Virus record (IMG/VR): IMGVR_UViG_3300028048_000080
Location: 32,001 to 96,000 of that record
Reading direction: 5' to 3' (one strand)
DNA from: a virus
Lineage: Duplodnaviria; Caudoviricetes
DNA: 64,000 nucleotides
Part shown: piece by piece, positions 5,801 to 23,400 of the stretch
Layout of the letters: each line of letters begins with the position of its first letter
Position numbering within the stretch: the stretch's first letter is position 1
Notes under the pieces: model-generated
What the model saw: the letters and a program-made list of their open reading frames with translations, nothing else
Databases searched by the model: none
What the model was told of the DNA's origin: nothing
Made by a program: the position numbers and the translations under genes

Positions 5801-8800
5801 GCGAAGATTGAGCTGGTCGAGCACACCGCTGGTACGAGTACGTTTTTCTTCCTCGTCTTCGCCCAGAGTAGAAGGAGAAAACATTGAACGGAAAACATCG
5901 TAGGCAGAACTTTCTTTAGCGCGAAGTCTCGTATCTTCCTCGGTAGTTTCTGACTGATAAATATTAGTCAGCACGATATTGGCCGTATCCGCGGGATTCT
6001 TTCTATCCTTAATTACGTCGAACGACAAGATATTGGTGGAATTATAGAAGTTATCGTGAAGTTTATAGCTGCCCAGCTCACGTCCTTCGTCGATAAGCAT
6101 CATATAATAGGTAGGAAATGCTCTAAGCATGCGACCGCGTGCATCGTAGACAATCATGTCGTGGCACGAATGCATCATGTACTGCTTCGGATCATCGGCA
6201 GCTTTAATGTAAAGCTGATTATCCATCTGCTGTACTTTCCGGCTACTCGGAGCACTGGGACGAACACCGGAAGCAATTTTGTTTTCCTGTCGCCCGACCC
6301 CAGCCAGAGCCAAGTTGGACTTGCGCATACCGGTGGACAATTTGTCATCCGGTGAAACCGGGGTAGATGGAACGGATACGCCATGCAAATATTCGTTGAG
6401 TCCTCGGTAATCACGTTTATCAATACGGTCACGAAGCATCTTGTTGCCGTCCGAGAGAGCGAGCATGGAGCATACCCACATCTTGCCGGCGTCGATAGCG
6501 TAAGCATTCTTGGTAAAGAATGTCATATGGTCGCGCAATTCAGCATCTGCCTGAGAAGCCGGAATCTTGTTGCGTTCTTCCGCTTTACGGATTTCTCCTT
6601 CAGCCTTAGTAACTTTACGGAGAATATCTCCGTTGATAGAAGGTAAAGCCCTTTTAAGAATTAAGCGGCGGAGCCAATAGAGCATGTTACGCATATAAGC
6701 GAATGCACAGTACTTGGGGCTGTTAATGCACCCTTGTTTATATAAGCGGATAGTGTCTACCGGTTGATAACGGTAGTAGCGGTCAAGAAGATAACGAGAA
6801 GCATTAAGAGGGCTCTTCTCTTTTTCCTCATCGCTCCACACGTCCACGGGATTTTCACCCGTTACCTGTAAGAATTCTTCTGGAGTATACTGGCGAATAT
6901 TGAATGCGCCAAACATACTAGCCTCTTCGATAGCTTCCGCGAGGGTGCTGGCAGATGCGGCCTGAGCCATATTCTGCGTGCCGACCGGAACTTTAACGCC
7001 CATGTAGTCAGGAGAGGGCATCCAATCGATAGCTTTTTTCTTGGAGGAGTATTCCTTAGAACCACTGGCGGAGCATGCCGCCGCGAATACGATATCTTCC
7101 GTAATTGAGCGGAACGCTTCTGTACGGTCAATATTCAATAGCTCAAAAATCTCGATAACTTCAGGGGTGCTCAAGAAGGCTCCTACGCCGAGCCGGATAT
7201 CGGCCTTAACTGAATCAAAGCTAGGTTTTAAATCCTGGTCGCTTTGTTTCTTGTCAAAATAGCTATTGCGGCAAGCACTTTCCTTTGGAGCCTCTAACGT
7301 AATGGGAACGTCGGTGAGATATTTGGCTATCTTTTCGGCTGCTGTATTAGCGTTGGCCAGTTGTCCGATTACCCATGCGCCTTCAGGCATCGTCCGCCCT
7401 TTTTGCGTCCCAGGAACTTGCGATGTATCATCGGTAGCCTTAACCTGCGTGGTATCATCCGTGGATTTAACCTGCGTAGTATCATCGGTAGCTTTAACCT
7501 GAGAAGTATCGTTGGTAGCGTCTACGTGAGGCTGTTCAAAGCTATCTTTAGCGTCATCGGCTTTTTTACGAGCGTCGTAGGATTCAGCTTCTTTCTTGTA
7601 ACGATTTTCCATGAAGACTACGCGAATATCGTTATTGATTTCCCACGCGTCGTAATCTTCTACGGCGGCACCTACACGACTTTTATCCCGAAGATTTTCA
7701 GACAATCCTTTGGCGTTAAGCTCATACTGTGAATTGAGAGCAGCTTTAGCGAATTCCGTTTGCCGTTTAGCTTCACTATTAGCAGCTATCAAATCAAACC
7801 CTTTTAATTCAGCGGGCGACATAGAGTATTGCGCGCCGGACGCATCCGTAAGCGTTCTGGTTCCGTCAATGCCTGCTTGCACTGAATTAATGATGGTTTC
7901 TCTTAATATCTGGCTGGATAAACGAGTAAGATATACGAAGTAGAAGTCAGGATCGACGTAAGTACGGTTGTCCTGGAACTTATAACGGATAAAGTCATAA
8001 CCCAGAGTGCTCATCTCGGCCAATGTGGGAAGTTCCAGGTCAGGATATAGTTCGGCGTGAGATATAGCAGTTTCGATTTCGAAGTATGACTTCATCTTCT
8101 TAGCTTGATAAACGTCAGCACGATTTTTCTTGCCTTGGGCCCAGTCAGCAATGTCGTCGGCGAATGAAGATGCGCGATAGCCGCCATTGTTTGCCTGGAT
8201 CATCTCCGCGGATTCGCGGTTGCGCAAGGTGCGGTCCATAGACTTCATGATAAGGTTAATCTGATACGTGCCGGGATGATTGTCGACCGTATTTACCGTG
8301 ACGTTATCAATCATTACTTCAGATACACCGAGAAAACGAGTGAACTCAGAATCGACTTTGATAGGATAACAGGGGATAATCTGTCGATACTTACGCATCA
8401 TCATGGTGGCGTAATCAGGCATGCTTTCGATCATCTTAACGGCATTTTTATCTGTAGTCATGATGCTGACATTGAATTCTATATCCTGGCCGCCAAGGAA
8501 CTGCGCGCAGGATTTGCCACTTTCCTGCAGATGAACGTTGCTGAACGTATTGCGGAGAGAAGCACTGATGGAAGTGATATGGAACACGCCGGTATCAATA
8601 GGTCTGAAACGCATGTTATCCAGCTGAGCTATTAACGGCGCCTTCATCCAGCCATCGGTGGAAGCTTCTCCACTGCCATCATTTTTTACTCGCGGAGAAT
8701 TCTGAAGCGTATTTAAGGCATAATCCCATACGCGAGCTTCAGGACGGGAGGTGTCAAGTCTGTCATATACGTGCTCCTGTGAATTCTTTTCGGGATCAGG

Positions 8801-11320
8801 ATATACGCTGAATGGAATCTCGATAAAACGGTTGGCAAACATGTTGCTGGCTTCTTCTTCTGAAGCGTTGATTAACGGTGCCATGTTGCCACGCAAATTC
8901 TTGATAACGTCGCCCTTATTCACCCCTTTTATCTTTACGGCCACACCGAAAGTTACTTTATTGCTCGCATTATCTTTACGATAAAAGATAGAGCAACCTT
9001 CTACGTTAGGATTCTTTTCAAGCGTTTCTTTAATTTGCGAGCAAAAATCCGTGACGATTTTGCCGGCATCTTGTCCGTCATCAGTAACTAAGGCACTATT
9101 GGGAGGAATATAACTAGTGAAATCACTATACCCCTTATTCATATCGGCATGAATGCCAGCCAAAGCTTTATGGGCGTCCCCCTGAAGAAATTCAGAGGAA
9201 CGCAAAAGCTTCTTTAGATCTTGAGCTACTTCTCCGATATTATGAATGACTTCGTTAGACTCTGGCGTGAACTGAATAGCGTACGACAAATTACGTTCAC
9301 GATCTTTTTTACTAGCCAGCATCTTGTCCAGATAATTGGCGTCCGCAATGAAGAACTTCATGCCGCTGTTTTCAAAGAGCATTGGCTGAAATGCCGTCCG
9401 CTGTTTAAGAGCTTCAATCATATACTCTTTCGTATTGATATCGTAGCCTACTCCGCGGAGTTTGTCGCCAGCCATTAAAGCCCTTTGATAATAGTAGCGC
9501 ATGGTTTTCCAGTTAAATGCTATCGCGAATGGATTGCTTACATCCATTTGCATGCCTAACAGAGCCACTTCAGGAATATAAGCCTCGTAGTTAAACTCAC
9601 GTAAGTAGAGATTAACCTGCATGAGCTGAGGCATACCAGGGACCGTATTGATATTGATGGTTTCAAACATTACGGCCTTGATACCCAACACTTCGTTCAG
9701 GTAAGTATTTTCGATAGGCAAGAACGGTGTGAAGTGAAATTGAGAAATAAGTGCGCGCAAACCGTTAATGGAGTATTCCATCTTAGTGCCATTGGGCGCC
9801 GTTTCAGTAATCTTATATCCGTTAATCCCGTCGTTATGAGAAAAGAATATAGACATCTGAATCGTGCGGATGCTATATTTCGAGCCGACAGGCATTGAAC
9901 CGCGAGCACGCAAAATAGGCATAGAATCATTTACGCTGGAGTTCTGCACCGTAATGCTAGTAGGCGGAATCATTAGGGTCGTGTCGCCGATGGTTACCGT
10001 CCAATCTTGCAGTTCGTTCCAACTCTTGCCGAGAACCTTTTGTTGAATCTTTTTACGGTCATCCAGTTCGTCCCATGTTCTGAAATACCCGTCAGCTACG
10101 GCCGTCTGTTCGGGGTCGTAGTTATTTTTGAATACTTTCTTATCCGAACCGCCGGTGAAATTCTTATCGACGTCAGCATGCGTATTTTCTTTATCGGCTA
10201 TTAAAGCCTTAGCAAGGTTAACCCATTTGCCGTCAACTTTAATATACGCCGTGCCGGACAAACTGCCCGCATGAATCTGGCGTAGGAGACGATAACCACA
10301 GTTGGGATTGTCGTCGCTGCTCCACTCTTTTAATTGTTTTACGGCCTCGGGGTCATGTTCAGCCATCTCTTTCAAATCGTTTTCGGGCGAACTAGCATAT
10401 CCGTCTAACATAACGTATACGTCTTTTTGGGTAAGACGATTGATGAATGCGGTCGCCGCTTCAGGATTTCCTTCTCCGGTAGCGGGAGCCATTACCCATT
10501 TAAAAGATCTGGTATCGCCATCTTCGTTGGTGGGAATGTACTGATGATATCTGCCACCGATTTTGACGAATTTATAGATTTCTCCGTCCTTAGGTTCTCG
10601 CGCGCAAACATAAAGTCCCGGCTTCGCATCTATCGTATCTTTACCAGCTTCAACCAAAGTTAAGCTGGACGCGGGAACATTCTCCTCGAAAGCCATACGA
10701 GAAGCTACGGGACAATTTATGCCGTATAAAGATATGGTTACGTAATCATTATCTTTCATCGTGCCGCATGGCGTTCCTCTATGTTTGATGGTGTTAGCGT
10801 AAGTCCCCTCTTCGCCATTACCATTTAAAGCGTCGAGGCGCACACGAAGAGTTTTACCGTTGAACCAATTGCCTTCGTGCCCCGGTTCATCCGTAGTTAC
10901 CTTAAAGAAGTAATGACCGTTATTGTCAGTTCCGGGGGTGTCAAAAGCGGGCGCTTCCGTATAGAAGACGGCTTTCTTCCCGTCGCCCTTCTTGGCTTCA
11001 GCATCTTCGACTTTTTCGATGTCACCGCGCAACATATGATCGAGCTTACGCAAGTACATGTCATCCACGCCACCAAGATAGAAATCGCCCATGTTGGGCG
11101 TATCAAACATCTCCTGGGGGATAGCGTAGTGCTGAAGATTCTCCGCTGAATTTCTATCAGCGTATGCTAAGGCTTCAGCAGATATAGCTTGTCTCGTTTG
11201 CGCTTGCTGCATTTCCCACATTTTACGTTTTGTTTCACTATCGCTTACCGCATTTTGTGCTAGAGCATTGGCTCCGGCAGCCTGCAGTTGTGTATTTGAA
11301 TTTGACAGGTTCTCAACCAA
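2831..11320 (-). CDS. Giant (2829 aa) baseplate hub-like tail protein with degenerate SNase-like N-terminal domain
   Basis: Hub-like segments (ADTANIVLTN, LRAGARIHLRAGYG..LPIIFNGSIAEI, GDLVILGDTSVKPHDRISIND..VKEVVHHMSLENGFITTI). TTG start with GGGAGGG RBS; position in tail module. Confidence 0.6.
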   Translation of the reverse strand: MVENLSNSNTQLQAAGANALAQNAVSDSETKRKMWEMQQAQTRQAISAEALAYADRNSAENLQHYAIPQEMFDTPNMGDFYLGGVDDMYLRKLDHMLRGDIEKVEDAEAKKGDGKKAVFYTEAPAFDTPGTDNNGHYFFKVTTDEPGHEGNWFNGKTLRVRLDALNGNGEEGTYANTIKHRGTPCGTMKDNDYVTISLYGINCPVASRMAFEENVPASSLTLVEAGKDTIDAKPGLYVCAREPKDGEIYKFVKIGGRYHQYIPTNEDGDTRSFKWVMAPATGEGNPEAATAFINRLTQKDVYVMLDGYASSPENDLKEMAEHDPEAVKQLKEWSSDDNPNCGYRLLRQIHAGSLSGTAYIKVDGKWVNLAKALIADKENTHADVDKNFTGGSDKKVFKNNYDPEQTAVADGYFRTWDELDDRKKIQQKVLGKSWNELQDWTVTIGDTTLMIPPTSITVQNSSVNDSMPILRARGSMPVGSKYSIRTIQMSIFFSHNDGINGYKITETAPNGTKMEYSINGLRALISQFHFTPFLPIENTYLNEVLGIKAVMFETININTVPGMPQLMQVNLYLREFNYEAYIPEVALLGMQMDVSNPFAIAFNWKTMRYYYQRALMAGDKLRGVGYDINTKEYMIEALKQRTAFQPMLFENSGMKFFIADANYLDKMLASKKDRERNLSYAIQFTPESNEVIHNIGEVAQDLKKLLRSSEFLQGDAHKALAGIHADMNKGYSDFTSYIPPNSALVTDDGQDAGKIVTDFCSQIKETLEKNPNVEGCSIFYRKDNASNKVTFGVAVKIKGVNKGDVIKNLRGNMAPLINASEEEASNMFANRFIEIPFSVYPDPEKNSQEHVYDRLDTSRPEARVWDYALNTLQNSPRVKNDGSGEASTDGWMKAPLIAQLDNMRFRPIDTGVFHITSISASLRNTFSNVHLQESGKSCAQFLGGQDIEFNVSIMTTDKNAVKMIESMPDYATMMMRKYRQIIPCYPIKVDSEFTRFLGVSEVMIDNVTVNTVDNHPGTYQINLIMKSMDRTLRNRESAEMIQANNGGYRASSFADDIADWAQGKKNRADVYQAKKMKSYFEIETAISHAELYPDLELPTLAEMSTLGYDFIRYKFQDNRTYVDPDFYFVYLTRLSSQILRETIINSVQAGIDGTRTLTDASGAQYSMSPAELKGFDLIAANSEAKRQTEFAKAALNSQYELNAKGLSENLRDKSRVGAAVEDYDAWEINNDIRVVFMENRYKKEAESYDARKKADDAKDSFEQPHVDATNDTSQVKATDDTTQVKSTDDTTQVKATDDTSQVPGTQKGRTMPEGAWVIGQLANANTAAEKIAKYLTDVPITLEAPKESACRNSYFDKKQSDQDLKPSFDSVKADIRLGVGAFLSTPEVIEIFELLNIDRTEAFRSITEDIVFAAACSASGSKEYSSKKKAIDWMPSPDYMGVKVPVGTQNMAQAASASTLAEAIEEASMFGAFNIRQYTPEEFLQVTGENPVDVWSDEEKEKSPLNASRYLLDRYYRYQPVDTIRLYKQGCINSPKYCAFAYMRNMLYWLRRLILKRALPSINGDILRKVTKAEGEIRKAEERNKIPASQADAELRDHMTFFTKNAYAIDAGKMWVCSMLALSDGNKMLRDRIDKRDYRGLNEYLHGVSVPSTPVSPDDKLSTGMRKSNLALAGVGRQENKIASGVRPSAPSSRKVQQMDNQLYIKAADDPKQYMMHSCHDMIVYDARGRMLRAFPTYYMMLIDEGRELGSYKLHDNFYNSTNILSFDVIKDRKNPADTANIVLTNIYQSETTEEDTRLRAKESSAYDVFRSMFSPSTLGEDEEEKRTRTSGVLDQLNLRAGARIHLRAGYGSNAAMLPIIFNGSIAEINAEATINIVAQGDGVELTNPIMEEMEGHEIGQDAKWLSNGNNPKDIINDMLTTEGGWIARTLKNFGRPDLLGDNPYGIYHFGDKDFKDIIASGEPTQNIFDALPTPVWDEESDGGALFDQAPSISFDVFGKSPWDVINICRSVMPDFIAAVAPFDFRSTVFVGAPRYYYAYSYMSTSGVIREKRKPFQQFHVYSSACDIIGNGITATSQNMKTTATGLYQVAATANNKEQHKVGPLYADFDIYPENQKSMIVDTQLYAKGVPYIGACGLNFLTSFEIVDELFSNDEDNSCWNPNLTGGHNMNAKSIAWRMTASALKDSMKEMYAGDLVILGDTSVKPHDRISINDTYTGISGQCTVKEVVHHMSLENGFITTISPDCINTVQDKSEAASHHWYDMSAITWATHTAVVGNILRIWKSGATKASDAAALKQVGQKFFGSTIAKAESLAAKNSVAAGAWNLAKAGGKLVPKAAGMAVSAGEKLLTKLATRAAAGALIGSVVGPLGTGAGLISGAALAIAETVVIETVGNLVTNLFKKHARNLQVITLYPLKRYGRAWVAGIAGTKGMVYGTPSFGDNGPYTKIFNGMTGIEAPGKDAQGEALGVNTNDPSMAIANFSAAIFDDPEVWSMAKNSAAHKAGTIDENGDPTMNKDDFNESLRTSFSSPQAGAQLKNDYRAMQMTPRADFSKGNEVLSAYKHFAMLDINKYLTDPKLKNFYLISSDNRLRPYSEEGFFKIIHETPALNEGAYVDSQIMRIRGEETYVKVIKYKLDNGAIVYDVPLLSRDALNILYEIIRRAKNYMPAANSSDPYESYEQTKSSFIALESALRIGDTQSLAAAGHTFILQGVDNAVTPLASAIKDLQDEIKADAEKNGLGETALFDVSVDSTDKTKVAIVVRMAKVSGNGEERGSVEQKSEKTESEDVARREGEDDTDYLIRISEEGQKKDKELGDIVNGSIERQTAE
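7412..7523 (-). repeat. About 4 copies of an in-frame 27-bp repeat (ATDDTTQVK) inside the 2829-aa gene
   Basis: ATNDTSQVK ATDDTTQVK STDDTTQVK ATDDTSQVP in the translation. Confidence 0.9.
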
Positions 11321-11367: not shown

Positions 11368-11386
11368 CGCCATGACACTTAAAACG

Positions 11387-11417
11387 AAAAAGTATCAGCA
11401 CGATACTTTTTCAAAAA
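11387..11417. repeat. 31-bp palindromic element copy 1 (AAAAAGTATC-agcac-GATACTTTTT-CAAAAA)
   Basis: Identical copy at 20351-20381. Confidence 0.9.
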
Positions 11418-11441
11418 AATAACGCCACCCGAAGGTGACGT
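11413..11441 (-). terminator. Probable intrinsic terminator after the 2960-aa gene
   Basis: ACGTCACC-TTCG-GGTGGCGT hairpin followed by a T-run on the minus strand. Confidence 0.65.
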
Positions 11442-11446
11442 GTAAA

Positions 11447-14400
11447 TTATGCTACGCCGATAGCGTGAGCTACCATACGATTAACTTGTAGCTGAGATAA
11501 ACTGTTGCCTACCGAAGTGCTCAGGTTAACGTTGACTGAACCAGTCTGAGGAGTCAGTCCGCTGGCCGCGTTGGAGATGGCATCCACCGCTGCCTGCTGT
11601 CCTTGGCCAGTTTGAGCGTTAATGTTGATAACGTAGCCTGAGGATGGGCCACCGCGCATTACGTTCAGATTGGAGTCGGATAATGACATCTGCTGCATGG
11701 CAATCTGATCCCCTTGGTCATTAGACATCTGCATCGCCTGAGTCTGAGCCGGAGTAGGAACATCGTGCTCTACCGAGGGGCCGGAAGCGTAGCCGGCAGT
11801 CATGAGCCCGGCAGCTATCCCGATTGCCGCGGCTATAGCTTTTCCTCCGGCTCCGCCGATGGGCGCAATATCGAGCATGCGTCCGAAAGATTTCCCGGCG
11901 CTTTCGGCCGTATCTTGCACTACGGCGCGTCGATAACGAGCGTTACGGTTCCTGGAGGCCGCTTCAGCCATCTGCTGTGCCGCATCTTCAGCGTTCTTAT
12001 GTATCGCCGTTGAAGTAGCGTTATCCAAGTCGTTAAAAGCTCCGCTGACTCCGGCTTCAGCATTCATATCATTTAATACCTGAGCTGTTTTGCCGAGTTG
12101 ACTATCTACCGAGTGACTGGAACGATAATTGAGTGGATCGGAGGCTTTTAAACCTGAGGCAGAAATACCCGTCATTAAAAGTTTTTGTTCTTTCTGGTCG
12201 ATGGTAGTGTTGCGCACGATATCACCAAAAAGCTTAGTGGTATTTTCGATAAGCTCATCGGTGTCGCCAAGCATGGCTGAACGCGGGCCAAATTCCTTTT
12301 TAGCTCTGTCCTTAAATACGCCGCCTACAAATGTTTGAAGAGCACTTGCCGCTTCTTCACGGTTTTCTCCCGTATACATTGCTTTTACGGCATCGCCCCA
12401 TACCTTCTGCAGTTCCTCAGCTCGTTTTAAGTCCGTTTCGCCGCGGGCGTTTTTACCGGTGAGAGCACCTTCCTGTAGAGCCATTAGACCGATAAGAACT
12501 TCGGCGTTTTCTTTACCCGTAAGCTTAGCTTGAGAATGAGCTATACGAGAGAATTCGAATAAGCTCTTATTCATAATACCGGCTGCTTTCTTAGAAGCCG
12601 CTTCGGTAAAACGTTCATCCATGCCCATCTGCCATTTACGATAATGCAGGGCTTCATCAAAGGCGGCGGCTTCTTCTTTGCCGTAGTTTTGAGCTACGAA
12701 GTTACCCATTCGCTGAACATAAAGAGCTTCATCTTTGGCCGCTCCTTTCTCAGCATCCCAGATTTTTTCAAAGTCTTCCGCGTGGCTGGTCTTATAATTT
12801 TCATTCAGCTGATCTAACAGGGCTTTATTGGTTTTTATTTCTTCCTCGGTGTATTTCTTTTCGAAGTTAACCAGTCGGTCACCATCGTAAGTATATTCCG
12901 TAAGGTTGCTAACACCGTAGGAATCATCGGCGATATGTTTCCCGTCTTTCCCCCAGTGAGATTCCTGAGGCTGGCCATACGGCGTAATATCTACCGCGTT
13001 GCGTACCATGCCCGCCTTAGCTTCTATGAAGTTATCATCGAGCAGTTTAACGTTCGTACCTTCCATGGCGCTTAAAGCACGATACGCGGCGAAGTCGACT
13101 TGGGCACGTACGGTGCGTCCATCAGCGTAAGTAATTTCGGCTTCACTCTTACGGATCATCGCGTTGATCTTATCGGAGTCATAGTCACCGTTCTGCTGGC
13201 GGAACGTCTTTAAGTTGGTACGGAATTCATCTCGACCGAGAATATCGCTAAAGTGCATATTGACGGCTTGAACCGGGTCACGAGAAACCAACGGATAACG
13301 CTGATCTACCGCGATAGTACCCTCTTTATCTAATACGCCGAGAGTCTTTTCTTTCAGCTGCTTAGCCAGTTTTTTATCGCCGCCAGCCATCTGCTCGAAC
13401 ATCTCGTCGGAATAGATAGCGTCTCTATGCTGCGTGCTGGCAAATAAGAAGCCGAGATCCATACCACTACCCTTTAAGACAGCATCTTTGGCGTTTCGGA
13501 TGTCGGCCAGTTCAGTGAATGATTTCCCGGAATCAAGGAATTTGGCATTGCCAAAAGCGCCATCTAATCCGTCGCCGAGGAACTGGAACCCCTGTGCCGT
13601 GCCGTACATGGTGCCATCCGAAATAACCGTAGTGGACGCCCGTTTGAACGTGCCGTTTTTATCGGTAGCTTCCTGCGCAACCATCGAACGGAGTTTCTCT
13701 GTCTCACGCATCAGTTCACTGCGCCGCTTCTCGTTAATATCTTGTCCGCCGCCGCGATGATTCTCATACTCGCTCGTGTACTGGTCATGCAGGCGCGTTA
13801 CGCGAGCTACCTGGCGCTGCAGCTCACTCTTACGAGCCGCGCCGGTGCTGTCTTCCTGCTGCAGCGCGGAGAATGGCAAGGCAATGGTGCGGTCACGATC
13901 CGACGTATATATCTGGCCATCTATTAAAGAGTTGGAATGCAAGTCAAGAACAATGGCCTGTCCATACAATGATTCAGCGAATTTATCATCAGTTTTATGG
14001 ATGCGAGCGTTGGTACGGAGGTCGTCGATAGACAAGCTGGTAAAGCCCAGGTTGTTCATTTCTTCCAACGAGTATTTATGACTGCGATTATATTCATGCG
14101 CGTTGGTCGAACTATTAGCTTCGATGAGGTCTAAGACTCTATTGGCGGTAGCATCTTGTACGTTGGACTTCTTCAGAGCATTAATGGCTCTCTGCGCAGT
14201 CTTTTTGTCGACCCCTTGCTCTTTGAGCCATGCCATGCCCTCTTCAGCGGTTTGGGCAGTTTCTCCGTTTTTCAGAATATGCTCAGCCCCTTGTACGCCT
14301 TTCCCCTCGTGAACGAAAGTGTCTTTCATAAAGTCATCGACGAGAGTCTGGTAGGCCAAGTCGCCATCTTTTTTAGACTTGGTAAAATCTTGGATAGCTC

Positions 14401-17400
14401 TTGAGAAGGCCGTGTCGCCGAACGCATCGGATATAGCCGTGGAAGATTTATCTATATAGTCCTTCGTATATACGGTGCTCTTCAAAGCATCAATAGTACG
14501 TTCATCTGCTTTGAAAGTGGATCTGTCTCCAGACTTACCGTAGTTATAGTTAGGCAGGACTCTAACCTGAGTGCGGGCGACTTCGTACATTACGTCGCCA
14601 TATTTGGTGGAAAGCTGGTGCATGGAATCGTGCCAGCCATCTTTGCCGCCAAAATATTTTTCCGTAACTTTGTTTAAGCCTTTAGTGCTAAGATGGCTGT
14701 CGTCAGTTACGAATTCTGCCCATTTTTTACCGTCAGTATCTTCATGGATTTTGATGCCTTTCATGGCACCGTTTTTCTCCATGATGTCCTTGGCTTCTTC
14801 TATGGAAAAACCCTTAAGATCGATTAATCCGTTAAACGTAGCTTCGAATGCGGAAGGGCCACCATGTTTTTTATGACCGGCCGCCGTATGACCGAACATG
14901 TCAATAGCTTCTTTTATGCCTATATCTCTTAGAGCTTCGTCCATAACGGTATTGGTACGGTAACGCTCTTCGAGTAAAGCGGAAGCAAACTTCGCCACAC
15001 CGCCAAAATTCTTGTTAATAATTTCTTCTATCTTGGCGTCGTTAAGAGCTAATAGTCGTTCACGCTTGGCTTTGTCTTTTTCCGCCATCGCTTTGCTGAG
15101 CGTCAGACCATGAACGAAAGCGGCAAATCCCGTACCTTTTACGGTTCCGGTATCAAACAATTCTTGAATAAAGTCGACGTGAATTTGCCGGCCGATAAGC
15201 TTTTCTGCGTTCAGCTCTTTTAATGTGGAAGCGATTTTCTTGTCGACTTCTTGTGAACCTTGGCCAAGCCCGTTCATCAAGACATGGCTCATCTGTTTTT
15301 CGCTATAGTCGGTCAGCTTAGTGTGGCCATCTATATCCAGGCTTTTAACGTAGAAGTCGTGAGAGAACGGCGAATTTTCCTTAGAGAAAAGCGCCCAGGC
15401 AGCCTGCTCGCGCTCAGCCCCCGTAAGAGATTTGTTAATATTCTGGTTGATATAATCGCTTACGGCCTCATCGGTCATTTCTTGACCGTTTTTAAAGATG
15501 CCTGACCTTAAAAGCCCTGTCTGCTTAGCCCTTACGGTTTCGTCTTTATACGTAGCGCTATTAGAAGCTTTAGTAAACAGTTCTTCTCCAGATTCTACGT
15601 ATACGCCTGCGTTCGATTCATAATGGGCCATACCGTCGGCGTCAAAAGTAATTTTGCCCTGAGCTTTCAATAGCTTTTCGAAATTACGGCTATTTTCGAT
15701 ATCGGAGCGGGCAATTTTGCCGAAAGCAACATGCTGTTCAAAATGCTCGGAGGTTAATCCGGCATCTGCGGCGCGGGCCGAAATGGCGCCCGATGCTTCA
15801 TCCGTAAAGATGGACATCATCTGACGATATTCGAAGGAGTCCTCGCCCAGCTTATCGGCAGCATATCGCATTAAGCGGCGCATACTTTCCGAATCAGCGG
15901 AGAGCTTATTGACCACCATGGTGTCGGCAACGTTATGGCCAAGCTTCTCGGAAATAGCATTCATATGCATGTGTTCCTGCATGGATTCGAATGCTGCTCC
16001 AAAACGTACGCCACGGCCTTCCATGATTTTTGCGGCGCGTTCTACATTGAACGGGATGGCCCTATCCATCTTAGTAGAAATATGGTTAAGGTCTTTGTCA
16101 TAGGACATTAATCCGCGATAACTGTCGGATAGAATATTTACCTGACCACGGGTGTCACCGGCATGGCTCAGGATATCCTGAAAAGCGCCTGTGGTGTCGC
16201 CTTCAAAGAGGTCGAGAAATTCTGCGCGCCCAGAGTCAATACTATCGACGATATACGGAGTCAAAATATGCAGTGTGCGCATATATGCTGCCGCGAGAGA
16301 ACTCGATGCATTCTTTAACGAATTGATTTCATCGACTCTTTTAGCGTGTTTAATACCTTCATCGCCGATTTTCTCCAAGTGCTCAATCATGATATCGGCA
16401 GCCTGCGTACCTTCGTCGCGAAGTTTTTGTATTATCTCTTTGCGGTCTTTTTGCCCTATCGTATGTAAAGTTTCGTCTATATTAATAACGTTAGCGAGAT
16501 TACGGTCTTGGCGGTCGCCAAAATAATCAGCTGAGTGCTGCCGATATCTCGCGCTTCGCATTCCGAAAATGCCTGATACTTCTTCGGCAAGATTACCGTT
16601 TTCCCTTCCGCGGTTGAACATGAAGTTCATTAGGTTCTCGCCATCTCTAGCGAGACGACCTTCTTCCGTGGTATAAATTAAAGCGTTGTGCTTGGAAGAA
16701 TAATAGAGGCCTACTTCGTCGCCGAACTCTTGTCCGTTAGCCAGGCGGCGCTTAAAAGTACCGTTGGAAAATACGTTGCGGTCAAGACCGATTACGGTGT
16801 AGTTATTAGCCCTTACATCCTGCGCCGTATTATAGACCCAGAACTGGCCATAATCTTTGTTATAGCCTATAGCGCCGCCGTGAGAATAAATGCCGCCAAT
16901 AATCTGTTCAAGCATTTCTTGGCTGGCGCCGTAGCGGGCACGCTGCATCTTGTAAATCTTACGCGCGTCTCTCTCACTATAACCAGCGGTGTCTACCAGC
17001 TTCTGGATAAACTCCTGCTCTTCTTTTTCGGTTCCTTGCGATACATCGAAGCCGTTATTGAAAACTATGTTTTTATTAATGTCAGAAGCGACGCCCTTGG
17101 CCCAAGCTAGAAAATCCTGCCCTTCCTTGGACTCTTTTTTCCAAACAGGTTTACCGTTTTCAGCAACAGGCTTGAAACTAGTAGCAACCTGAAAATCGAT
17201 GCCGGTAGCTTTGGAACTAACGGCGAGAATCTCATCGTCCGTCAAACCGCCGTTAACCAAGTTGTCGATAATATCGAACTGCTCGGTGGTAGACAATATG
17301 CCAGCCCATACATTACGTTTTCTTCTTTCACGCATTAAATGAGTGATCTTGCCGCCGGCGATAGCAGCAGTGTCGTTTTCAATATCGACGAGATATTCTT

Positions 17401-20329
17401 GCCCGCGACCATCGGCGATGTCATCCAGTTTTATAATCCCTTGATCCAAGAGACGCTGTTGAAAGTTAGCCAAGAGAGTAAGTTTTTCATCTTCTTGAGC
17501 GTGCTCTATTTCGTTAGCGGAACGTCCCATTTGCCGCATCAAAGATTTGACTACGCCGTAATCAGCGTTGATATCGATTGAAGCCATAGTGCTTCCGGAC
17601 AAAGATTTAACCCCGTAGAATCCTTCGATATCCACTTGGAACTTATTCAGTTCGCTGGCAACGCGGGGAAGGACTTGATAACCTGCGCCGGCCTTGCCGA
17701 CTTTTTCTATAGCGGCTTCTTCAAACATATCCCGAATTTCGTGATAAAAGAATTGAGCTCTGTCATCACTTAAGGATATGTCTTTGCCATAATGGTCACG
17801 CACGGCTGTTAAAGAGGCTTTGATTAACCCCTTGTTTGCGCGCGCCCATTTTTCGAGCGACGCCATATTCTCCATCGTGTCGGCATAAGCCTTACGTTGT
17901 CCCGTCTCTTTGTCGATATAGCCAAAGTAGTCCTGAAGAGAACCGTCATATTCATTGAATTTAACTTCTACCCCAGAAAGTTGCTTCTCTTCTATCTCTT
18001 TCGTCTTAGCTTTAACCTTATCACGAAATTCTTGGCGAAGATCTTCAATGGTGCTTTCGTCCGCCTGATTTTTTAAAAGCCCTTTTTCCTTCAGCTTTTC
18101 ATTAACATATTTATCCATGTCGTCGACATACTGCATGAGCCTTTCGTCACGACTGGCAATTTTATCACGAGCTTTGCGCCCGGCAGCATCATTAAACGCT
18201 CTATCAGATATTTCCTCTAAATCTTTGAGAGAAGCTGTCTTGTATTTACGGTTGCCCTCAGCGTCTATAACCACCGTGCTAAGCATGTCCCGATATTCTT
18301 GGGGAACATTTTCCATTAAGAATTCTTTGTCGTTCCCCGTTTTTTTAGCACCCGCTAAGGTGAATAAGTTATTAACGGTATCCATAAGATCCTGATACTT
18401 GCCGACCAGAACGATGTCTCGGTGTGCCGAAGCCAACTTAGATTTGGTGTGCGTAGTCCAGCGCATAGCAAACAAGTCTCCGCCAGCCATATTTTCATGA
18501 TTGGAAAGTATAGGCATTAGCGGGGAATCAGATTCTATCTTGGAAATACCTGAAAGCTCGTATAATCCGCGGCGATGTATACCGGGCGCCTGATAAAGTG
18601 CCCGTGCGCCTCCTTTTTCGCCGATAGCTACGCCGTCAGAAGACCACCACTGGTTAGTGTCTTTGTCGAAAGCGAAAGACATTACGCCATGCTTATGCGG
18701 ATCCCAGGTAGAATTATTAGCGAAGAAAAGCTGCGTACTGTTGCCCTTTAATTTAACGGCGTTTTTGGTAGCTTTTTTAGTGATAAACGAATTAGAGGAG
18801 TTAGGGTCATAGAATCCGCTGCCGAATACTACGCGCATAAGGTCGATGGCATCAGCTTCAGCGATATGGGTTTGACCGCTATGGATAGCTTCCGGCGAAA
18901 GACCTTTTTTAATAGCCGTCGCCGCCAGGATTGTCTGCTGAGTTTTAGGAGTCTCTTTCTGCGTTTTCATCCACTTCATGAGCGAATCCGTCTTGTCCTT
19001 GTCGCCCATGTAATTGCTCCAGAACGTATACGGGTCACCCATGTGTTCTTTAGGAAGAACCATTGCGTCGAGAGCGTTATTAAAATGCAGATGGTCGCCG
19101 CCAAGAATGCTACTCATTTCCTTACGGAATGCTTCAGTAGTTAAATCCTTATTATGCAGGAGATAATCGAGCTGAGGAATATCGAAGCGATTGCCATTAT
19201 AGCTTACTGCCGTAAGGTTATTGGCATAAATGTTACGGATGGCCGAGGCAAGCTCTTTTTCCCATCCGAACATTTCGTTGCCTACGCGGGTCTTTTCTTG
19301 GTACTCGCCGACTTCACGGAGAAGATTAGCGCCCTTAATCATTTCTTCTATCGTGCCGTTCGCGCCAGTTATATCCTTCTGCTCGGAGAAAGAAGAAAAT
19401 CTAACTACACCGTCTTTGGCTTCATCCCAGTTCACGTGCGTATATTTAGCGCCATGCAAAGCGAGACGGTTAAGGGTTACAAGTTCACCTTCTGCCATCT
19501 TTTCGCCACGAGAAAAACGGTCGATGAGGTTAAGCATATTCTTATGCTCTTTGCCGGACAAACCAATAATAGAACCGTAAGTTTTCTTAATATTGAAGTC
19601 GCCCGTCTTAAAATCGCCGAAGCCATCAGAGAAAGAAAACTCGGTAATACGCTGCATCTTATCGTATAACTTATCACCGTGACGACCGAAGGTTTCCAAG
19701 TCGAATGCTACGGCGCGCCCTTTTTGGGCGACGATGTTTTCGACGGCTTTTACTGATTCGTGTGGAGCGCCTTTAGTATAGGGGGTAGTTTTTTGATAGA
19801 TAAAATCGTATCCCGTGGTCTTTCGACTTTTCCCGTAAGTAAAAGCTTTGGAAAAAGTACGCACATTAAGACCCGAATACAATTTAACTAACTGCTCGTC
19901 AATTTTAGGAAATTCACTGAACTTCCTGACGGCTGCGTGTGGAACCACTATAGTAGCGCCTTGCGGTTGAGCTAAGTCAGCTATACGATACGCCAAGAAA
20001 GGAGCTATACTATGGTTTTCTTGCAGAGCAAGTTTTTTCCGCATTCGCTCCAACTCGCCACTGTGTTTTTCTCTCCACCAATTCCGATCTTGATTGTATA
20101 GCCAGACACTATTGTCTAAGTCTTTGATGATATCGGCATCGGCTTCGTCGCCTATATCCTTAAAAAATTTTAAGCTTTCTTGTTGTTCGTGAAAAAGATC
20201 TCTTTCGATGTGTTGTCTAGCATGTTTTCGCTCGTCCATCTTTTTTTGGAACGATTCCGAATTAGTAAATTTATTTAATTCAGCCTGCATACGAGCCTGC
20301 CGTCTTGCGTTGTCGCTGAAAAATGCCAT
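11447..20329 (-). CDS. Giant (2960 aa) putative virion RNA polymerase (two-barrel type) with N-terminal DEDDh 3'-5' exonuclease domain
   Basis: QRYP followed 38 aa later by NGDYDSD (beta-prime-like RxP..DxDxD spacing). Exonuclease motifs AFDLET, YNGNRFD, HIAEAD. Hydrophobic C-terminal helix. Confidence 0.7.
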   Translation of the reverse strand: MAFFSDNARRQARMQAELNKFTNSESFQKKMDERKHARQHIERDLFHEQQESLKFFKDIGDEADADIIKDLDNSVWLYNQDRNWWREKHSGELERMRKKLALQENHSIAPFLAYRIADLAQPQGATIVVPHAAVRKFSEFPKIDEQLVKLYSGLNVRTFSKAFTYGKSRKTTGYDFIYQKTTPYTKGAPHESVKAVENIVAQKGRAVAFDLETFGRHGDKLYDKMQRITEFSFSDGFGDFKTGDFNIKKTYGSIIGLSGKEHKNMLNLIDRFSRGEKMAEGELVTLNRLALHGAKYTHVNWDEAKDGVVRFSSFSEQKDITGANGTIEEMIKGANLLREVGEYQEKTRVGNEMFGWEKELASAIRNIYANNLTAVSYNGNRFDIPQLDYLLHNKDLTTEAFRKEMSSILGGDHLHFNNALDAMVLPKEHMGDPYTFWSNYMGDKDKTDSLMKWMKTQKETPKTQQTILAATAIKKGLSPEAIHSGQTHIAEADAIDLMRVVFGSGFYDPNSSNSFITKKATKNAVKLKGNSTQLFFANNSTWDPHKHGVMSFAFDKDTNQWWSSDGVAIGEKGGARALYQAPGIHRRGLYELSGISKIESDSPLMPILSNHENMAGGDLFAMRWTTHTKSKLASAHRDIVLVGKYQDLMDTVNNLFTLAGAKKTGNDKEFLMENVPQEYRDMLSTVVIDAEGNRKYKTASLKDLEEISDRAFNDAAGRKARDKIASRDERLMQYVDDMDKYVNEKLKEKGLLKNQADESTIEDLRQEFRDKVKAKTKEIEEKQLSGVEVKFNEYDGSLQDYFGYIDKETGQRKAYADTMENMASLEKWARANKGLIKASLTAVRDHYGKDISLSDDRAQFFYHEIRDMFEEAAIEKVGKAGAGYQVLPRVASELNKFQVDIEGFYGVKSLSGSTMASIDINADYGVVKSLMRQMGRSANEIEHAQEDEKLTLLANFQQRLLDQGIIKLDDIADGRGQEYLVDIENDTAAIAGGKITHLMRERRKRNVWAGILSTTEQFDIIDNLVNGGLTDDEILAVSSKATGIDFQVATSFKPVAENGKPVWKKESKEGQDFLAWAKGVASDINKNIVFNNGFDVSQGTEKEEQEFIQKLVDTAGYSERDARKIYKMQRARYGASQEMLEQIIGGIYSHGGAIGYNKDYGQFWVYNTAQDVRANNYTVIGLDRNVFSNGTFKRRLANGQEFGDEVGLYYSSKHNALIYTTEEGRLARDGENLMNFMFNRGRENGNLAEEVSGIFGMRSARYRQHSADYFGDRQDRNLANVINIDETLHTIGQKDRKEIIQKLRDEGTQAADIMIEHLEKIGDEGIKHAKRVDEINSLKNASSSLAAAYMRTLHILTPYIVDSIDSGRAEFLDLFEGDTTGAFQDILSHAGDTRGQVNILSDSYRGLMSYDKDLNHISTKMDRAIPFNVERAAKIMEGRGVRFGAAFESMQEHMHMNAISEKLGHNVADTMVVNKLSADSESMRRLMRYAADKLGEDSFEYRQMMSIFTDEASGAISARAADAGLTSEHFEQHVAFGKIARSDIENSRNFEKLLKAQGKITFDADGMAHYESNAGVYVESGEELFTKASNSATYKDETVRAKQTGLLRSGIFKNGQEMTDEAVSDYINQNINKSLTGAEREQAAWALFSKENSPFSHDFYVKSLDIDGHTKLTDYSEKQMSHVLMNGLGQGSQEVDKKIASTLKELNAEKLIGRQIHVDFIQELFDTGTVKGTGFAAFVHGLTLSKAMAEKDKAKRERLLALNDAKIEEIINKNFGGVAKFASALLEERYRTNTVMDEALRDIGIKEAIDMFGHTAAGHKKHGGPSAFEATFNGLIDLKGFSIEEAKDIMEKNGAMKGIKIHEDTDGKKWAEFVTDDSHLSTKGLNKVTEKYFGGKDGWHDSMHQLSTKYGDVMYEVARTQVRVLPNYNYGKSGDRSTFKADERTIDALKSTVYTKDYIDKSSTAISDAFGDTAFSRAIQDFTKSKKDGDLAYQTLVDDFMKDTFVHEGKGVQGAEHILKNGETAQTAEEGMAWLKEQGVDKKTAQRAINALKKSNVQDATANRVLDLIEANSSTNAHEYNRSHKYSLEEMNNLGFTSLSIDDLRTNARIHKTDDKFAESLYGQAIVLDLHSNSLIDGQIYTSDRDRTIALPFSALQQEDSTGAARKSELQRQVARVTRLHDQYTSEYENHRGGGQDINEKRRSELMRETEKLRSMVAQEATDKNGTFKRASTTVISDGTMYGTAQGFQFLGDGLDGAFGNAKFLDSGKSFTELADIRNAKDAVLKGSGMDLGFLFASTQHRDAIYSDEMFEQMAGGDKKLAKQLKEKTLGVLDKEGTIAVDQRYPLVSRDPVQAVNMHFSDILGRDEFRTNLKTFRQQNGDYDSDKINAMIRKSEAEITYADGRTVRAQVDFAAYRALSAMEGTNVKLLDDNFIEAKAGMVRNAVDITPYGQPQESHWGKDGKHIADDSYGVSNLTEYTYDGDRLVNFEKKYTEEEIKTNKALLDQLNENYKTSHAEDFEKIWDAEKGAAKDEALYVQRMGNFVAQNYGKEEAAAFDEALHYRKWQMGMDERFTEAASKKAAGIMNKSLFEFSRIAHSQAKLTGKENAEVLIGLMALQEGALTGKNARGETDLKRAEELQKVWGDAVKAMYTGENREEAASALQTFVGGVFKDRAKKEFGPRSAMLGDTDELIENTTKLFGDIVRNTTIDQKEQKLLMTGISASGLKASDPLNYRSSHSVDSQLGKTAQVLNDMNAEAGVSGAFNDLDNATSTAIHKNAEDAAQQMAEAASRNRNARYRRAVVQDTAESAGKSFGRMLDIAPIGGAGGKAIAAAIGIAAGLMTAGYASGPSVEHDVPTPAQTQAMQMSNDQGDQIAMQQMSLSDSNLNVMRGGPSSGYVININAQTGQGQQAAVDAISNAASGLTPQTGSVNVNLSTSVGNSLSQLQVNRMVAHAIGVA

Positions 20330-20350: not shown

Positions 20351-20381
20351 AAAAAGTATCAGCACGATACTTTTTCAAAAA
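20351..20381. repeat. 31-bp palindromic element copy 2
   Basis: Identical to 11387-11417; lies in the leader of the 2960-aa gene. Confidence 0.9.
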
Positions 20382-20419: not shown

Positions 20420-20444
20420 AAAAACCCTGGATTATTCCAGGGTT
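20420..20444 (-). terminator. Probable intrinsic terminator after the 2195-aa gene
   Basis: AACCCTGG-aataat-CCAGGGTT hairpin followed by Ts on the minus strand. Confidence 0.65.
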
Positions 20445-23400
20445 AATAAGAGCTCTGCATAGATAGAGAGTTTTCGACCATCTTCTGTTCGTGACGCATA
20501 CCCATCATCTGTTTAACAGCGGCCCATATGGTAGTACCGCCGCCGGTAGGTCCGGCTTCCACGGAAATGTCGACACCTTTAAGTCCGGCGCCCTTGAGCA
20601 CATCTTCCATGTAGTTTTTTACGGCGGCTTCATTATGGTCACGGCCGCCACCTCGGAAGTTTACCGTAGGAGCGTTGATTACTTTTTCATCTCTGACTTG
20701 AGAATCGTAGTAGCCAAAGTCCGAAAGATTCATCGCTTCGTTTTCGATGGTCTTAACCTCAATATTATTCAAATCATACTGAGGAGCCCATCCTGCCCAG
20801 TTGGCTACGGGCAGTTCATGCTTAGCGAAAAATGTTTCATTATCTTCCTGCTCGTCCACCGTCTGTCCCCAGGCAAGCTGCAGAGCTTTACGTAGGAACG
20901 GTGAAACCTTATTGAGAATAACGTTACGTTTATCTGGATTGACTTCTTTAACAAATTCCATGAAGTATTCACGATCATTCGTCGGAAGGGCGGTAACTAT
21001 TTGTGACCATGAAGAATTCTCGTCCAAAGCATACATGGTTGCGTCAGCCGCTTTCTTATAAAGAAGCGCGGTGCGCGTCCATTCGCCGCCCGGAAGAATC
21101 ATAGTGTCTCCTTCGAGATCGGCTATCTTAGCATTGAGCTTCTTCATCAGCTCGTCGCGCTGAGTGCTTGGACGGGAATTCTGTTGAAGTTTCTTCTTCA
21201 TGCTCTTGTACTTGCTAAGAGCCTTCTGGTTCTTCTCCGCTTTCTCTTGCTGAAGCTCTATGACGTCTTCGAGATCGACGTCTTCTTCTTCCTTGGCTTT
21301 TTCAGCGGCGGCATGGAATAATCCTTCGTACTTCAGATAGGTTAGTCTATCGAAGTAATCTTGCATCTCCCATTTTTCTTTAGTGCGTTCAGGAATCCAG
21401 TCACCGTTAGGGTTTTTCTTTCCGTGGTAGAGCATACCAGCCGCCGCGCCAATAGCGCCGTATATCGCACGGGTCTTGCCGTTCTTTTCGAAGAAACGCC
21501 CTACTTCCTGCCCGATATTGGCCATAGACAACGCTTCATCGACATAGCTGTTACCGCCGGTTGCGGCATGAGCTAAAGTCATCGCGGTACTGCCGTAGCG
21601 CGACCAATTCATACGGGTTCTTTCATCCAGCCCCATGGCATTACCGAGAACGTTACCGATGAAAGCGCCGCGATCGCCAAAGATAAACGCGTATGCGCCG
21701 GCATGCTTCATCCACGGAGAAGCACCTTCAAAATCGCGGGTAAAACGATAAACATTGCCGAGCATGCCAGTAAAAGCGCTGCGGTCATGTGCTGCACGTT
21801 CTAAAGCGGGCATCAGGATGGAATTAATAGGATGTTCCCATGACTGATATGGCGTACCGTATACCTGCTCTGCATCATACGACTCAAGAGGAGAACGTAC
21901 TCGTAAGAACTGGTCGGAAAGCCATGGGATATCCATATGGGCGATATACTCTGAACCCCATGCTACCATCTTCTGCACGGGGCCGTAATTAGCCAACGTT
22001 GCCGCCGCCGACGTATCACCTTTACGTATAGACGCATCGCCATTCTTAATCATTTCTTGGCCGATATTCATACCGTCAGCGAATACGGCGGCATTTAACG
22101 TGCCTTGAGCATCTTTGTTTTTACGAGCGTACTCATCTTCGTCTACCGCTACCGTTACAGTTTCGCCTACGTGAATATAACGATTCAAGACTTCTTGCGC
22201 GCTTTCCTGTGCATTGGCTTTTAAGTGAGCGCCGGCTATCTTGAATATGCGGTTGCCCGAACGGAACTTGCCGTACCCCATGACTTCTGATACGACTACC
22301 TGTTGGTATTCCAGCCCTTTACCTACTACCTTATAATCGTAGAAATCATGTTTTTTACCTTGCTGATTTACTCGGTCACGAATCTCGTCCATCTCGTCGA
22401 TAAGTGCCGGGTCAGTAATGGTCTTTTTGGCTATGTCGCGCCATAGACGATATTCGGGAGAAAACGGCGCGATATCAGCCAGTATTTTCATACGGTCAAA
22501 AGCGCCGTATTCGCCGTACTGGTCAGGATGCAACTCATTAAGTGATTCATATCCTTTACCCGGGAGACGCATTTCGCCTTTTTGAATTTGCGTGAAGGGA
22601 TCGCCGAATCTGAAACGTTCAGGGAGCCAATCAGGCATGGTATTCATAAGTGGATTATTTCTTGGCCCACGGCGATAATCGGGAACGAAACGACGAGCTA
22701 TTTCTGCTGCTGCGCCGCCCAAACCACCGAGATTTTCATCCCAGAAGGTACGGGAGAACGAAGTCATATCCTGCCCCGTAGCGATACGCTCCATATCATC
22801 GACGCCGAATCCGGTAGCGGCACCGAGAGCGTAACCGTAGATACCTGAAATCAAACGCCAGGATACGGCGGCATTTTCTACTACGCCCGCACCTTTAGTC
22901 TGGTTTATCAGCTGAGTTACGGCATCCGGGTCACTCAAGAAATCCATTGCTTGAGACGGGCGATAAGACTTCAGCTTGTCGCCGTGAATCATCGTCTCGT
23001 CTTCATCTACTCCGTAAGGCGAAACGGTTTTACCTGACTCAGCTTTACGGGAAGCAGTTACGGAAGCGAGCATTCTTCTGGGATTTACTTTAGAAGCAAG
23101 AGCGGAGAGTTCTCCCCACGCATGTGTGCTATGCATTGGATCAATGCCTCTTGCGACATCTTCCAACATATTGCCATGGACGAGCCCGTCAACTACGTCG
23201 TTGCGCGGCAGCATATCCGTTAACTCATCGTACAAAGTCTCTCCGACCAGCTCGTTATACAAAAGCTTATCTTCCGCAGAAATCTTTACATGCTGTTTTT
23301 GCGTGGTTATGACGGTACCATTGCCTTTGTCATCCGTTGCGATGACCGACCCCTGTTTCGGAGGAGGACCACCGAAGAGTTTGTAATCTATCGCTTCGAA

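Follow-up and report, generated by a model that had tools for sequence, protein, structure and literature searches.

The gene at positions 11447-20329 (minus strand) of the window, the 64,000-nucleotide stretch of a tailed virus genome analysed here (positions 32,001 to 96,000 of IMG/VR record IMGVR_UViG_3300028048_000080), encodes a giant protein of 2960 amino acids in which a putative 3'-5' exonuclease is joined to a predicted RNA polymerase core, and it occupies the tape-measure slot of a contractile-tailed phage lineage. The best reading, to which a probability of about two in three is given, is that the giant protein is a tail-associated virion RNA polymerase, carried in the particle and delivered into the cell. 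The fold, the conserved catalytic residues and the gene position are what the analysis directly supports, while RNA synthesis, packaging, injection, the target genes and the role of the exonuclease would follow from the reading as a whole. A virion-delivered polymerase is favoured because of the precedent of phage P23-45, the gene layout, the C-terminal module shared with the slot proteins of related phages, the intact active sites and the presence of a candidate second polymerase. Features described below are on the minus strand unless stated otherwise.

The reading frame is open over 2960 codons and the translation, which includes IAVDQRYPLVSRDPVQ and, further on, FRQQNGDYDSDKINAMI, has a mass of 329.9 kDa, close to the 330 kDa estimated in the original prediction, which was made from the sequence alone. 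That prediction had drawn attention to an RxP motif, R2344-Y-P2346 (13292-13300), followed by a DxDxD metal-binding loop, D2382-Y-D-S-D2386 (13172-13186), and both the coordinates and the spacing of 38 residues between R2344 and D2382 match exactly. The motif by itself is weak evidence of a polymerase, as DxDxD occurs in 70% of 5000 shuffled versions of the giant protein and RxP followed by DxDxD at a distance of 30 to 45 residues in 1.1%. The case therefore rests on conservation and structure.

About 30 clusters of homologues are present in large protein collections, all metagenomic, 2500-3300 amino acids long and without a functional name. In a conservation alignment of 32 sequences, mostly 19-30% identical to the giant protein, R2344, P2346, D2382, D2384, D2386 and D2412 are the same residue in every homologue, and the middle position of the RxP motif is taken by E, Y, D, H, S, N, Q or F. 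The conservation of RxP and of the three aspartates, which the original prediction had proposed as a check, thus holds in 32 of 32 sequences. Columns conserved to 100% are also found at K1671, E1677, K1678, G1689, E1788, K1821 and H1822, and conservation of 94-97% is seen at E1511 and D1522 (94% each), Q1532, K1602 (97%) and R1944. The universal signature of two-barrel polymerases consists of RxP and DxDxD in one barrel and of one acidic and two lysine residues in the other, RxP being represented by R446/P448 in Rpb1 (Ruprich-Robert and Thuriaux, PMC2919709). The conserved residue set of the giant-protein family fits this signature in its order, with candidates for the residues of the second barrel. 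Within the family the catalytic loop varies as D[YFNSIW]D[SGA]D, reading DYDSD in 11 sequences, DFDSD in eight, DNDSD in seven and other forms in six (including DFDGD and DYDGD). Enzymes of the QDE type have a bulky residue at position 2 of the loop. This family variation, together with the DFDGD of P23-45 gp96, argues against DYDSD as a strongly atypical active site, and only the serine at position 4 remains unusual.

Residues 1501-2700 (12230-15829), modelled by AlphaFold2 with the family alignment as input, give a two-barrel RNA polymerase core with a mean predicted local distance difference test (pLDDT) of 84.4 and a predicted template modelling score of 0.81. Comparison of the model with known polymerases had been suggested as a check, and in a Foldseek search of the PDB all of the best 50 matches listed belong to RNA polymerase entries, nearly all of them bacterial beta' or archaeal A' (best expectation value, E, 3.6e-4; probability 0.99). 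An independent fold search with VIA-align, covering 48,161 chains, gave the highest score to QDE-1 (10.6; 287 residues, root-mean-square deviation 4.1, model residues 8-1152). Pol I A190 (9.3), vaccinia Rpo147 (9.0), Pol II Rpb1 (8.8) and archaeal A' (8.5) align from about model residue 583, while P74-26 gp62 (8.8), the non-virion enzyme of the P23-45 group, aligns over model residues 7-1200. Lower scores were obtained for the non-virion polymerases of AR9 and phiKZ (8.0 and 7.8), M. tuberculosis beta' (8.0), P23-45 gp96 (7.2), plant RDR2 (6.6) and crAss phi14:2 gp66 (5.5, over 394 residues), so that both phage enzymes originally chosen for comparison, gp96 and gp66, are among the structural matches. 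The alignments of the single-chain enzymes begin at model residue 7-8 and run past 1150, so that they take in both barrels at once, and those of the multisubunit largest subunits begin at about 583. The aspartates D2382, D2384 and D2386 lie inside the segment that superposes on isolated domains of the double-psi beta-barrel (DPBB) type. The proposal of a single-chain two-barrel RNA-polymerase-like core with a DxDxD centre is in this way supported by both fold searches and by the identical residues across homologues.

On the model, residues ~1500-2700 are predicted to form a complete single-chain two-barrel polymerase core, with a beta-like half, a clamp-like domain containing a helical hairpin (residues ~2068-2229; 13643-14128), a beta'-like double-psi beta-barrel with RxP and DxDxD (residues ~2239-2394; 13148-13615) and long helices. 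Catalytic residues of the beta-like half can be proposed from their order and conservation. The conserved acidic stretch E1511...D1522 (TDEGS...AD; 15764-15799) is a candidate for the fourth catalytic carboxylate of this barrel, and it stands at the start of the segment aligning with QDE-1 from residue 697. Within residues 697-1144 of QDE-1 lie D709, which binds metal in DPBB1, two lysines (K743 and K767) and aspartates 1007-1011 of DPBB2 (PMC9508822). The candidate basic pair of the beta-like barrel is found in K1671-x5-E1677-K1678 (15296-15319), where the model predicts a beta-hairpin with both lysines in it (strands 169-174 and 177-184). The second barrel of Rpb2 has the basic residues K979 and K987 and the acidic D837, and K1671/K1678 would be the equivalents of K979/K987. 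With K1602, these second-barrel candidates occur in the right order. The original prediction had pointed to four upstream strings as tentative beta-like elements, all of which are present in the translation. FTDEASGAIS (from about residue 1508) and HTKLTDYSEKQ (1669-1679) do hold conserved residues, whereas IDMFGH (1809-1814) is not conserved and of YVESGEEL (about residue 1577) only the preceding G1575 reaches 90%.

At the level of sequence, the giant protein is a member of a separate orphan family. Pfam gave nothing for it except a sub-threshold RNase_H_2, and PHROGs gave nothing. No polymerase family (RNA_pol_Rpb1, Rpb2, or RdRP PF05183) was matched up to E 1 by 16 diverse family members, and phmmer and profile searches of PDB sequences with the giant protein or its family yielded nothing meaningful. 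Neither megablast nor tblastn of the giant protein against 50,697 phage records produced a match, and a scan of IMG/VR with the family alignment confirmed no relative. Structural comparison of the polymerase model with BFVD reached further, to A0A7R7G2L5, a viral protein with no name (E 1e-10), to A0A8S5SD80, labelled 'minor tail protein' and from a siphovirus contig of the gut (E 4e-6), to a protein of Microcystis phage MaMV-DC (A0A075BUT7, E 7.8e-5) and to a crAss-like protein, which suggests that more tail-associated polymerases may be present among unannotated viral proteins.

The polymerase core is only one part of the giant protein, and calling the whole an RNA polymerase, as was originally done, leaves out two further domains: the N-terminal exonuclease and the C-terminal hydrophobic and beta-rich module. 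The order of domains is short N-terminal helices, exonuclease, about 1000 residues of folded domains, polymerase core, hydrophobic segment and C-terminal module. Residues ~200-520 (18770-19732) correspond to a DEDDh (DnaQ-like) 3'-5' exonuclease, with the motifs AFDLETFG (ExoI DxE, D210/E212), NGNRFDIPQL (ExoII NxxxFD, N378/D383) and HIAEADAID (ExoIII Hx4D, H488/D493). Conservation is at least 90% at D210, E212, N378 and D383, and every family sequence aligned keeps H488 and D493. The model of the N-terminal domain has an RNase H-like exonuclease fold, while in Pfam the domain falls below the RNase_T/DnaQ threshold and is touched only by RNase_H_2 at E 0.045, under the cut-off. The exonuclease is putatively intact in its catalytic residues. 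The middle region (residues 521-1500; 15830-18769) is of mixed beta and helical structure and confidently folded as far as it was modelled (to residue 1200), with pLDDT mostly 80-95 over residues 521-1200. For these residues no fold match could be separated from the exonuclease matches that dominated the search, and a protein atlas held no usable match to residues 520-1500. A Kyte-Doolittle scan reveals a sole strongly hydrophobic segment at residues ~2821-2850 (GGKAIAAAIGIAAGLMTAGYASG; 11780-11869), kept in the family as GIAGGLxxAGYAS. It is followed by a conserved C-terminal module (residues ~2883-2960, LSDxNLNVxRGGPxxGYVININA...; 11450-11683), in which the family shows its strongest conservation apart from the active sites.

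The source of the window is a single-contig virus record of 124,580 bp with a minus-strand structural arm of ~87 kb, encompassing terminase, portal, protease-like, capsid, sheath and tube-like genes, giant genes of 2195, 2960 and 2829 amino acids, and further tail genes. Genes for sheath, tube, hub, portal, capsid and terminase surround the gene and support its assignment to a myovirus tail module. Matches of the terminase and of the two giants on either side lie in the group of Bacillus phages 0305phi8-36, WH1, Edson and KLEB27-3, Moorella phage MTATph1 and Acinetobacter phage ME3. The upstream neighbour (2195 amino acids; 20443-27030) is a homologue of 0305phi8-36 gp145 (tblastn, 29-34% identity over 43-58% of the query). 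The downstream neighbour (2829 amino acids; 2831-11320) is a homologue of the baseplate hub gp147 with a cell-wall-degrading part (phrog_20474, E 7e-203), and also matches ORF147 and the ME3 'baseplate hub protein' by tblastn. In 0305phi8-36 the sheath gene is followed by those for the tube, a tube paralogue and two chaperones and then by gp145, gp146 and gp147, of which gp145 is annotated as a virion protein by mass spectrometry, gp146 as a 'hypothetical tape measure protein' found in virions by mass spectrometry, and gp147 as baseplate hub. Because the two neighbours correspond to gp145 and to the hub, the 2960-codon gene is placed by synteny in the gp146 (tape-measure) slot itself, a position, behind the tail chaperone genes and ahead of the hub gene, shared with 0305phi8-36, ME3, WH1 and the Moorella phage. 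It had been predicted to lie between a tape-measure-like gene and the hub, and while the hub is indeed downstream, the 2195-codon gene is rejected as the tape measure as it is a well-conserved gp145 homologue. The tentative tape-measure role of orf146 was based mainly on tail length, and conservation among slot proteins was noted for no more than their last 60 residues (Hardies et al., PMC2147016). On contigs of 190 and 254 kb, which carry distant members of the family, the block of three giant genes is retained as well.

The slot proteins of the related phages share with the giant protein the same position and the same hydrophobic helix followed by a short beta-rich tail, equivalent hydrophobic segments being present in WH1 gp095, ME3_36, Moorella CDS0031 and 0305phi8-36 gp146. 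Their sequence similarity to it is marginal or absent, and none is annotated as a polymerase. One of them, gp095 of Bacillus phage vB_BceM_WH1 (LC597490.1 94592-102139; 2515 amino acids), is annotated as 'virion structural protein'. Near its N-terminus it has exonuclease motifs, FFDIENIG being aligned with AFDLETFG and NINTYDIPF with NGNRFDIPQL (220 residues at 25% identity, BLASTP pairwise E 2e-4), its NRYPT...KADHDGD (residues ~1957-2000) aligns motif to motif with RYP...DYDSD (E 0.1), and its last ~150 residues match 0305phi8-36 gp146 (E 1e-3). WH1 gp095 thus appears, from these motifs, to be an unannotated exonuclease-polymerase of the same architecture. ME3_36 of Acinetobacter phage vB_AbaM_ME3 (KU935715.1 33172-37983; 1603 amino acids, 'hypothetical protein') carries REP...GGDHDQD at residues ~1170-1221 and, towards its C-terminus, a hydrophobic helix. 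A model in BFVD, taken by its size as the second half of ME3_36, matches the polymerase model at E 1.1e-5, while hhalign of the family against ME3_36 gave no match. In a survey of jumbo phages no two-barrel polymerase is listed for ME3, and 0305phi8-36 is credited only with a YonO-like enzyme (PMC7824862).

The slot gene of Moorella phage MTATph1 is split (OR602862.1 30512-37868) into CDS0027, a transposase and an IstB-like ATPase (an IS21-type insertion), and CDS0031. CDS0027 (1309 amino acids) matches the Pfam RNase_T exonuclease at E 5e-5 and has no DxDxD, and CDS0031 resembles a slot protein's C-terminal end with its hydrophobic and beta parts. In 0305phi8-36 gp146 (EF583821.1 52623-60236) an ExoI-like YLDIETTGL is found mid-protein at residue 1223 and no DxDxD anywhere, so that this protein may keep an exonuclease without a polymerase or may be too diverged to read. 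Comparison of the family with gp146 by hhalign gave no match, and comparisons restricted to the C-terminus aligned the GYxVNV strands of the two (E 0.12-0.16), a faint likeness of the tail ends that is suggestive only. The exonuclease is thus common to the giant protein, Moorella and WH1, and RxP...DxDxD to the giant protein, WH1 and ME3. The slot protein of the 0305phi8-36 lineage is modular, the exonuclease and the C-terminal anchor being widespread and the polymerase present in several branches.

To our knowledge, only a few phages, unrelated to one another, have been demonstrated to deliver a two-barrel RNA polymerase with the virion: the known cases are multisubunit enzymes of the phiKZ/AR9 type, gp66 of crAss-like phages and gp96 of P23-45. 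The last is the nearest precedent: gp96 is a virion two-barrel RNA polymerase fused to the tape measure that transcribes pre-early genes including that of a second, non-virion polymerase (Chaban et al. 2024, PMC10770324; PDB 8H2M/8H2N), and it has homologues in P74-26, G20c and TSP4. Searches of PDB sequences and profiles revealed no sequence similarity between gp96 and the giant protein, and the two differ in several respects. The phage of gp96 is a siphovirus, whereas that of the giant protein has a contractile tail. The polymerase of gp96 is N-terminal (DFDGD at 779-783) and that of the giant protein lies in the C-terminal half. The former is described as flat and clamp-less while the giant-protein model has a clamp-like domain, and gp96 has a metallopeptidase and lacks an exonuclease. 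The crAss phi14:2 enzyme gp66 (PDB 6VR4), also packaged in the virion, belongs to a podovirus with a cargo-protein system and has no exonuclease, no sequence similarity to the giant protein, and a weaker structural match to it than QDE-1 or beta'. Compared to QDE-1 and the single-chain enzymes of the YonO/RdRP-like type (PDB 7Y7P; PMC9508822), a group that includes 0305phi8-36 orf99 and whose PF05183 is not matched by the 16 family members, the giant protein is much larger, has a clamp-like domain of the beta'/A' kind, an exonuclease and a tail-associated C-terminus, and is encoded among structural genes. From the multisubunit largest subunits (beta', A', Rpb1/A190 and vaccinia Rpo147) it differs in having both barrels in one chain, with no RNA_pol_Rpb1 or Rpb2 match in Pfam, no zinc motifs noted and an identity of ~10% when aligned by structure.

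The plus-strand arm begins at about 55.7 kb of the window with small genes, and close to its start lies a candidate for a second, non-virion polymerase, made up of two adjacent genes of 680 and 728 amino acids (57139-59181 and 59250-61436, plus strand). The 680-amino-acid product ends with KYP...GMDFDGD, which stays unchanged in 10 homologues, and may, on the strength of this motif, be one half of a split, unconfirmed YonO/QDE-like non-virion polymerase. A homologue is encoded on a contig of 253,826 nt, equal in length to the record with P0007, which belongs to the giant-protein family. The pair had no match in Pfam, the PDB, profile searches or the phage records. When the giant-protein family was compared to this candidate by hhalign, the DxDxD loops paired at E ~0.09, which is not significant.

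Several observations weigh against a virion-delivered RNA polymerase. No direct evidence places the giant protein in particles, and neither the nature of the product (RNA or DNA) nor the type of template can be read from the sequence. A sequence-level tie to curated polymerase families is lacking in the Pfam searches with 16 members and in the PDB profile searches, and the beta-like catalytic residues were assigned by order and conservation, not by superposition. Mass-spectrometry evidence is stated for a single slot protein, gp146, in which DxDxD is absent and homology to the giant protein was not detected beyond the weak C-terminal likeness, and no paper was found on vB_BceM_WH1 that would explain the label 'virion structural protein' of gp095. 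A size of ~330 kDa may be hard to fit in or pass through a tail tube, and both modelled parts (residues 1-1200 and 1501-2700) are compact, globular multidomain folds and not the long helical rod of a length-setting tape measure, although the models represent the free folded state only.

In a rival reading, the giant protein would be a real two-barrel polymerase that is made late and acts in the infected cell, in late transcription, priming or RNA-templated synthesis, without being packaged, its place in the tail module being an accident of gene order. Packaging in the family is only inferred, the folded domains of the models look too bulky for the tail lumen, and the best structural match, QDE-1, works both as an RNA-dependent and as a DNA-dependent polymerase (PMC9508822). 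The gene is, however, always found between two virion-protein homologues in the relatives examined, its product has the ending of hydrophobic segment and C-terminal module that characterises this lineage's slot proteins, a separate candidate polymerase is already present in the early arm, and an enzyme made only late could not start an infection, which together make this explanation unlikely. That the giant protein is mainly a structural tape-measure or ejection protein, with polymerase- and nuclease-like domains kept as relics for their fold and without catalysis, is very unlikely. It does sit in the slot of the putative tape measure of 0305phi8-36, and the lack of DxDxD in Moorella CDS0027 and in gp146 implies that a polymerase is dispensable for tail building. 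Yet the catalytic residues of both enzymes are identical or nearly so at ~20% identity, where almost everything else has changed, and this points to selection on catalysis.

The fusion of a DEDDh 3'-5' exonuclease to a polymerase is a hallmark of proofreading DNA polymerases, and the giant protein might accordingly be thought of as a two-barrel DNA polymerase that proofreads by means of this exonuclease, the phage equivalent of archaeal PolD, serving replication or the end repair of injected genomes. No DNA polymerase gene was recognised among the larger open reading frames scanned in the 124,580-bp genome, in a partial survey which did reveal an AEP/PriCT primase (genome positions 105969-107051), a DUF1599 nucleotide-modification protein and an AAA ATPase. 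PolD is nevertheless absent from the 50 best structural matches listed, which are RNA polymerases, and ~1000 residues separate the exonuclease from the polymerase domains. The exonuclease also occurs in slot proteins without a polymerase, such as Moorella CDS0027, so the two are not an obligate pair, and a position in the tail module fits delivery rather than replication. Such an enzyme is considered very unlikely.

If the giant protein is a virion-delivered RNA polymerase, it would be made late, together with the structural genes, and be incorporated at the hub via its C-terminal end. Upon tail contraction it would exit with or ahead of the DNA and transcribe the first genes of the plus-strand arm without the host polymerase, and the early products of this arm may include the second, non-virion polymerase, as in P23-45. 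The exonuclease probably works on the 3' ends of nucleic acids at entry, where it would either trim the phage DNA end to expose a template or attack host nucleic acid. Proofreading of the polymerase is an unlikely task for it, since related slot proteins carry the exonuclease without a polymerase, which argues for independent action. In a more speculative and rather improbable version, exonuclease and polymerase would be delivered as one end-processing machine, in which the 3' strand of the first-entering DNA end is resected, synthesis starts independently of a promoter on the exposed strand and transcription helps to pull in the genome. In its radical form this machine would be a proofreading two-barrel DNA polymerase, a counterpart of archaeal PolD.

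The giant gene is bracketed by terminator-plus-palindrome units. A hairpin resembling an intrinsic terminator lies just past the stop codon (11422-11441) and just downstream of it a palindrome with the core AAAAGTATCGTGCTGATACTTTT and a 13-bp stem (11385-11413). An exact upstream copy of the palindrome (20352-20374) has the terminator that ends the preceding gene (20423-20444) on one side and the ribosome-binding site on the other; two exact copies compare to none expected by chance. The palindrome may serve as a processing site, an operator or a promoter element. Elsewhere in the structural arm, the two genes after the sheath (32410-33096 and 30750-32330) match phrog_9206 'major head protein'. 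This label looks misleading, as both would be, by synteny with ORF140/141 of 0305phi8-36, the tail tube and its paralogue. Most proteins of the left arm are without any family.

An injected two-barrel polymerase within a giant tail protein is known already from P23-45 and crAss-like phages. New with respect to the literature searched are the sequence family, its place in the contractile-tailed 0305phi8-36 lineage and the fusion with a DEDDh exonuclease. No paper found in that literature ties ME3, 0305phi8-36 gp146 or any protein in a myovirus tape-measure slot to an RNA polymerase, and none describes a pairing of exonuclease and RNA polymerase for any such enzyme. If the reading as a virion-delivered polymerase is true, self-sufficient early transcription by a tail-delivered enzyme would be widespread in large myoviruses, and structural and evolutionary comparisons with the cellular enzymes could draw on a new, minimal single-chain polymerase that has a clamp-like domain. 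The role of a nuclease on an injected polymerase would likewise become testable. As the cultured phages WH1 (gp095) and ME3 (ME3_36) appear to hold unannotated versions of the protein, direct testing would be possible.

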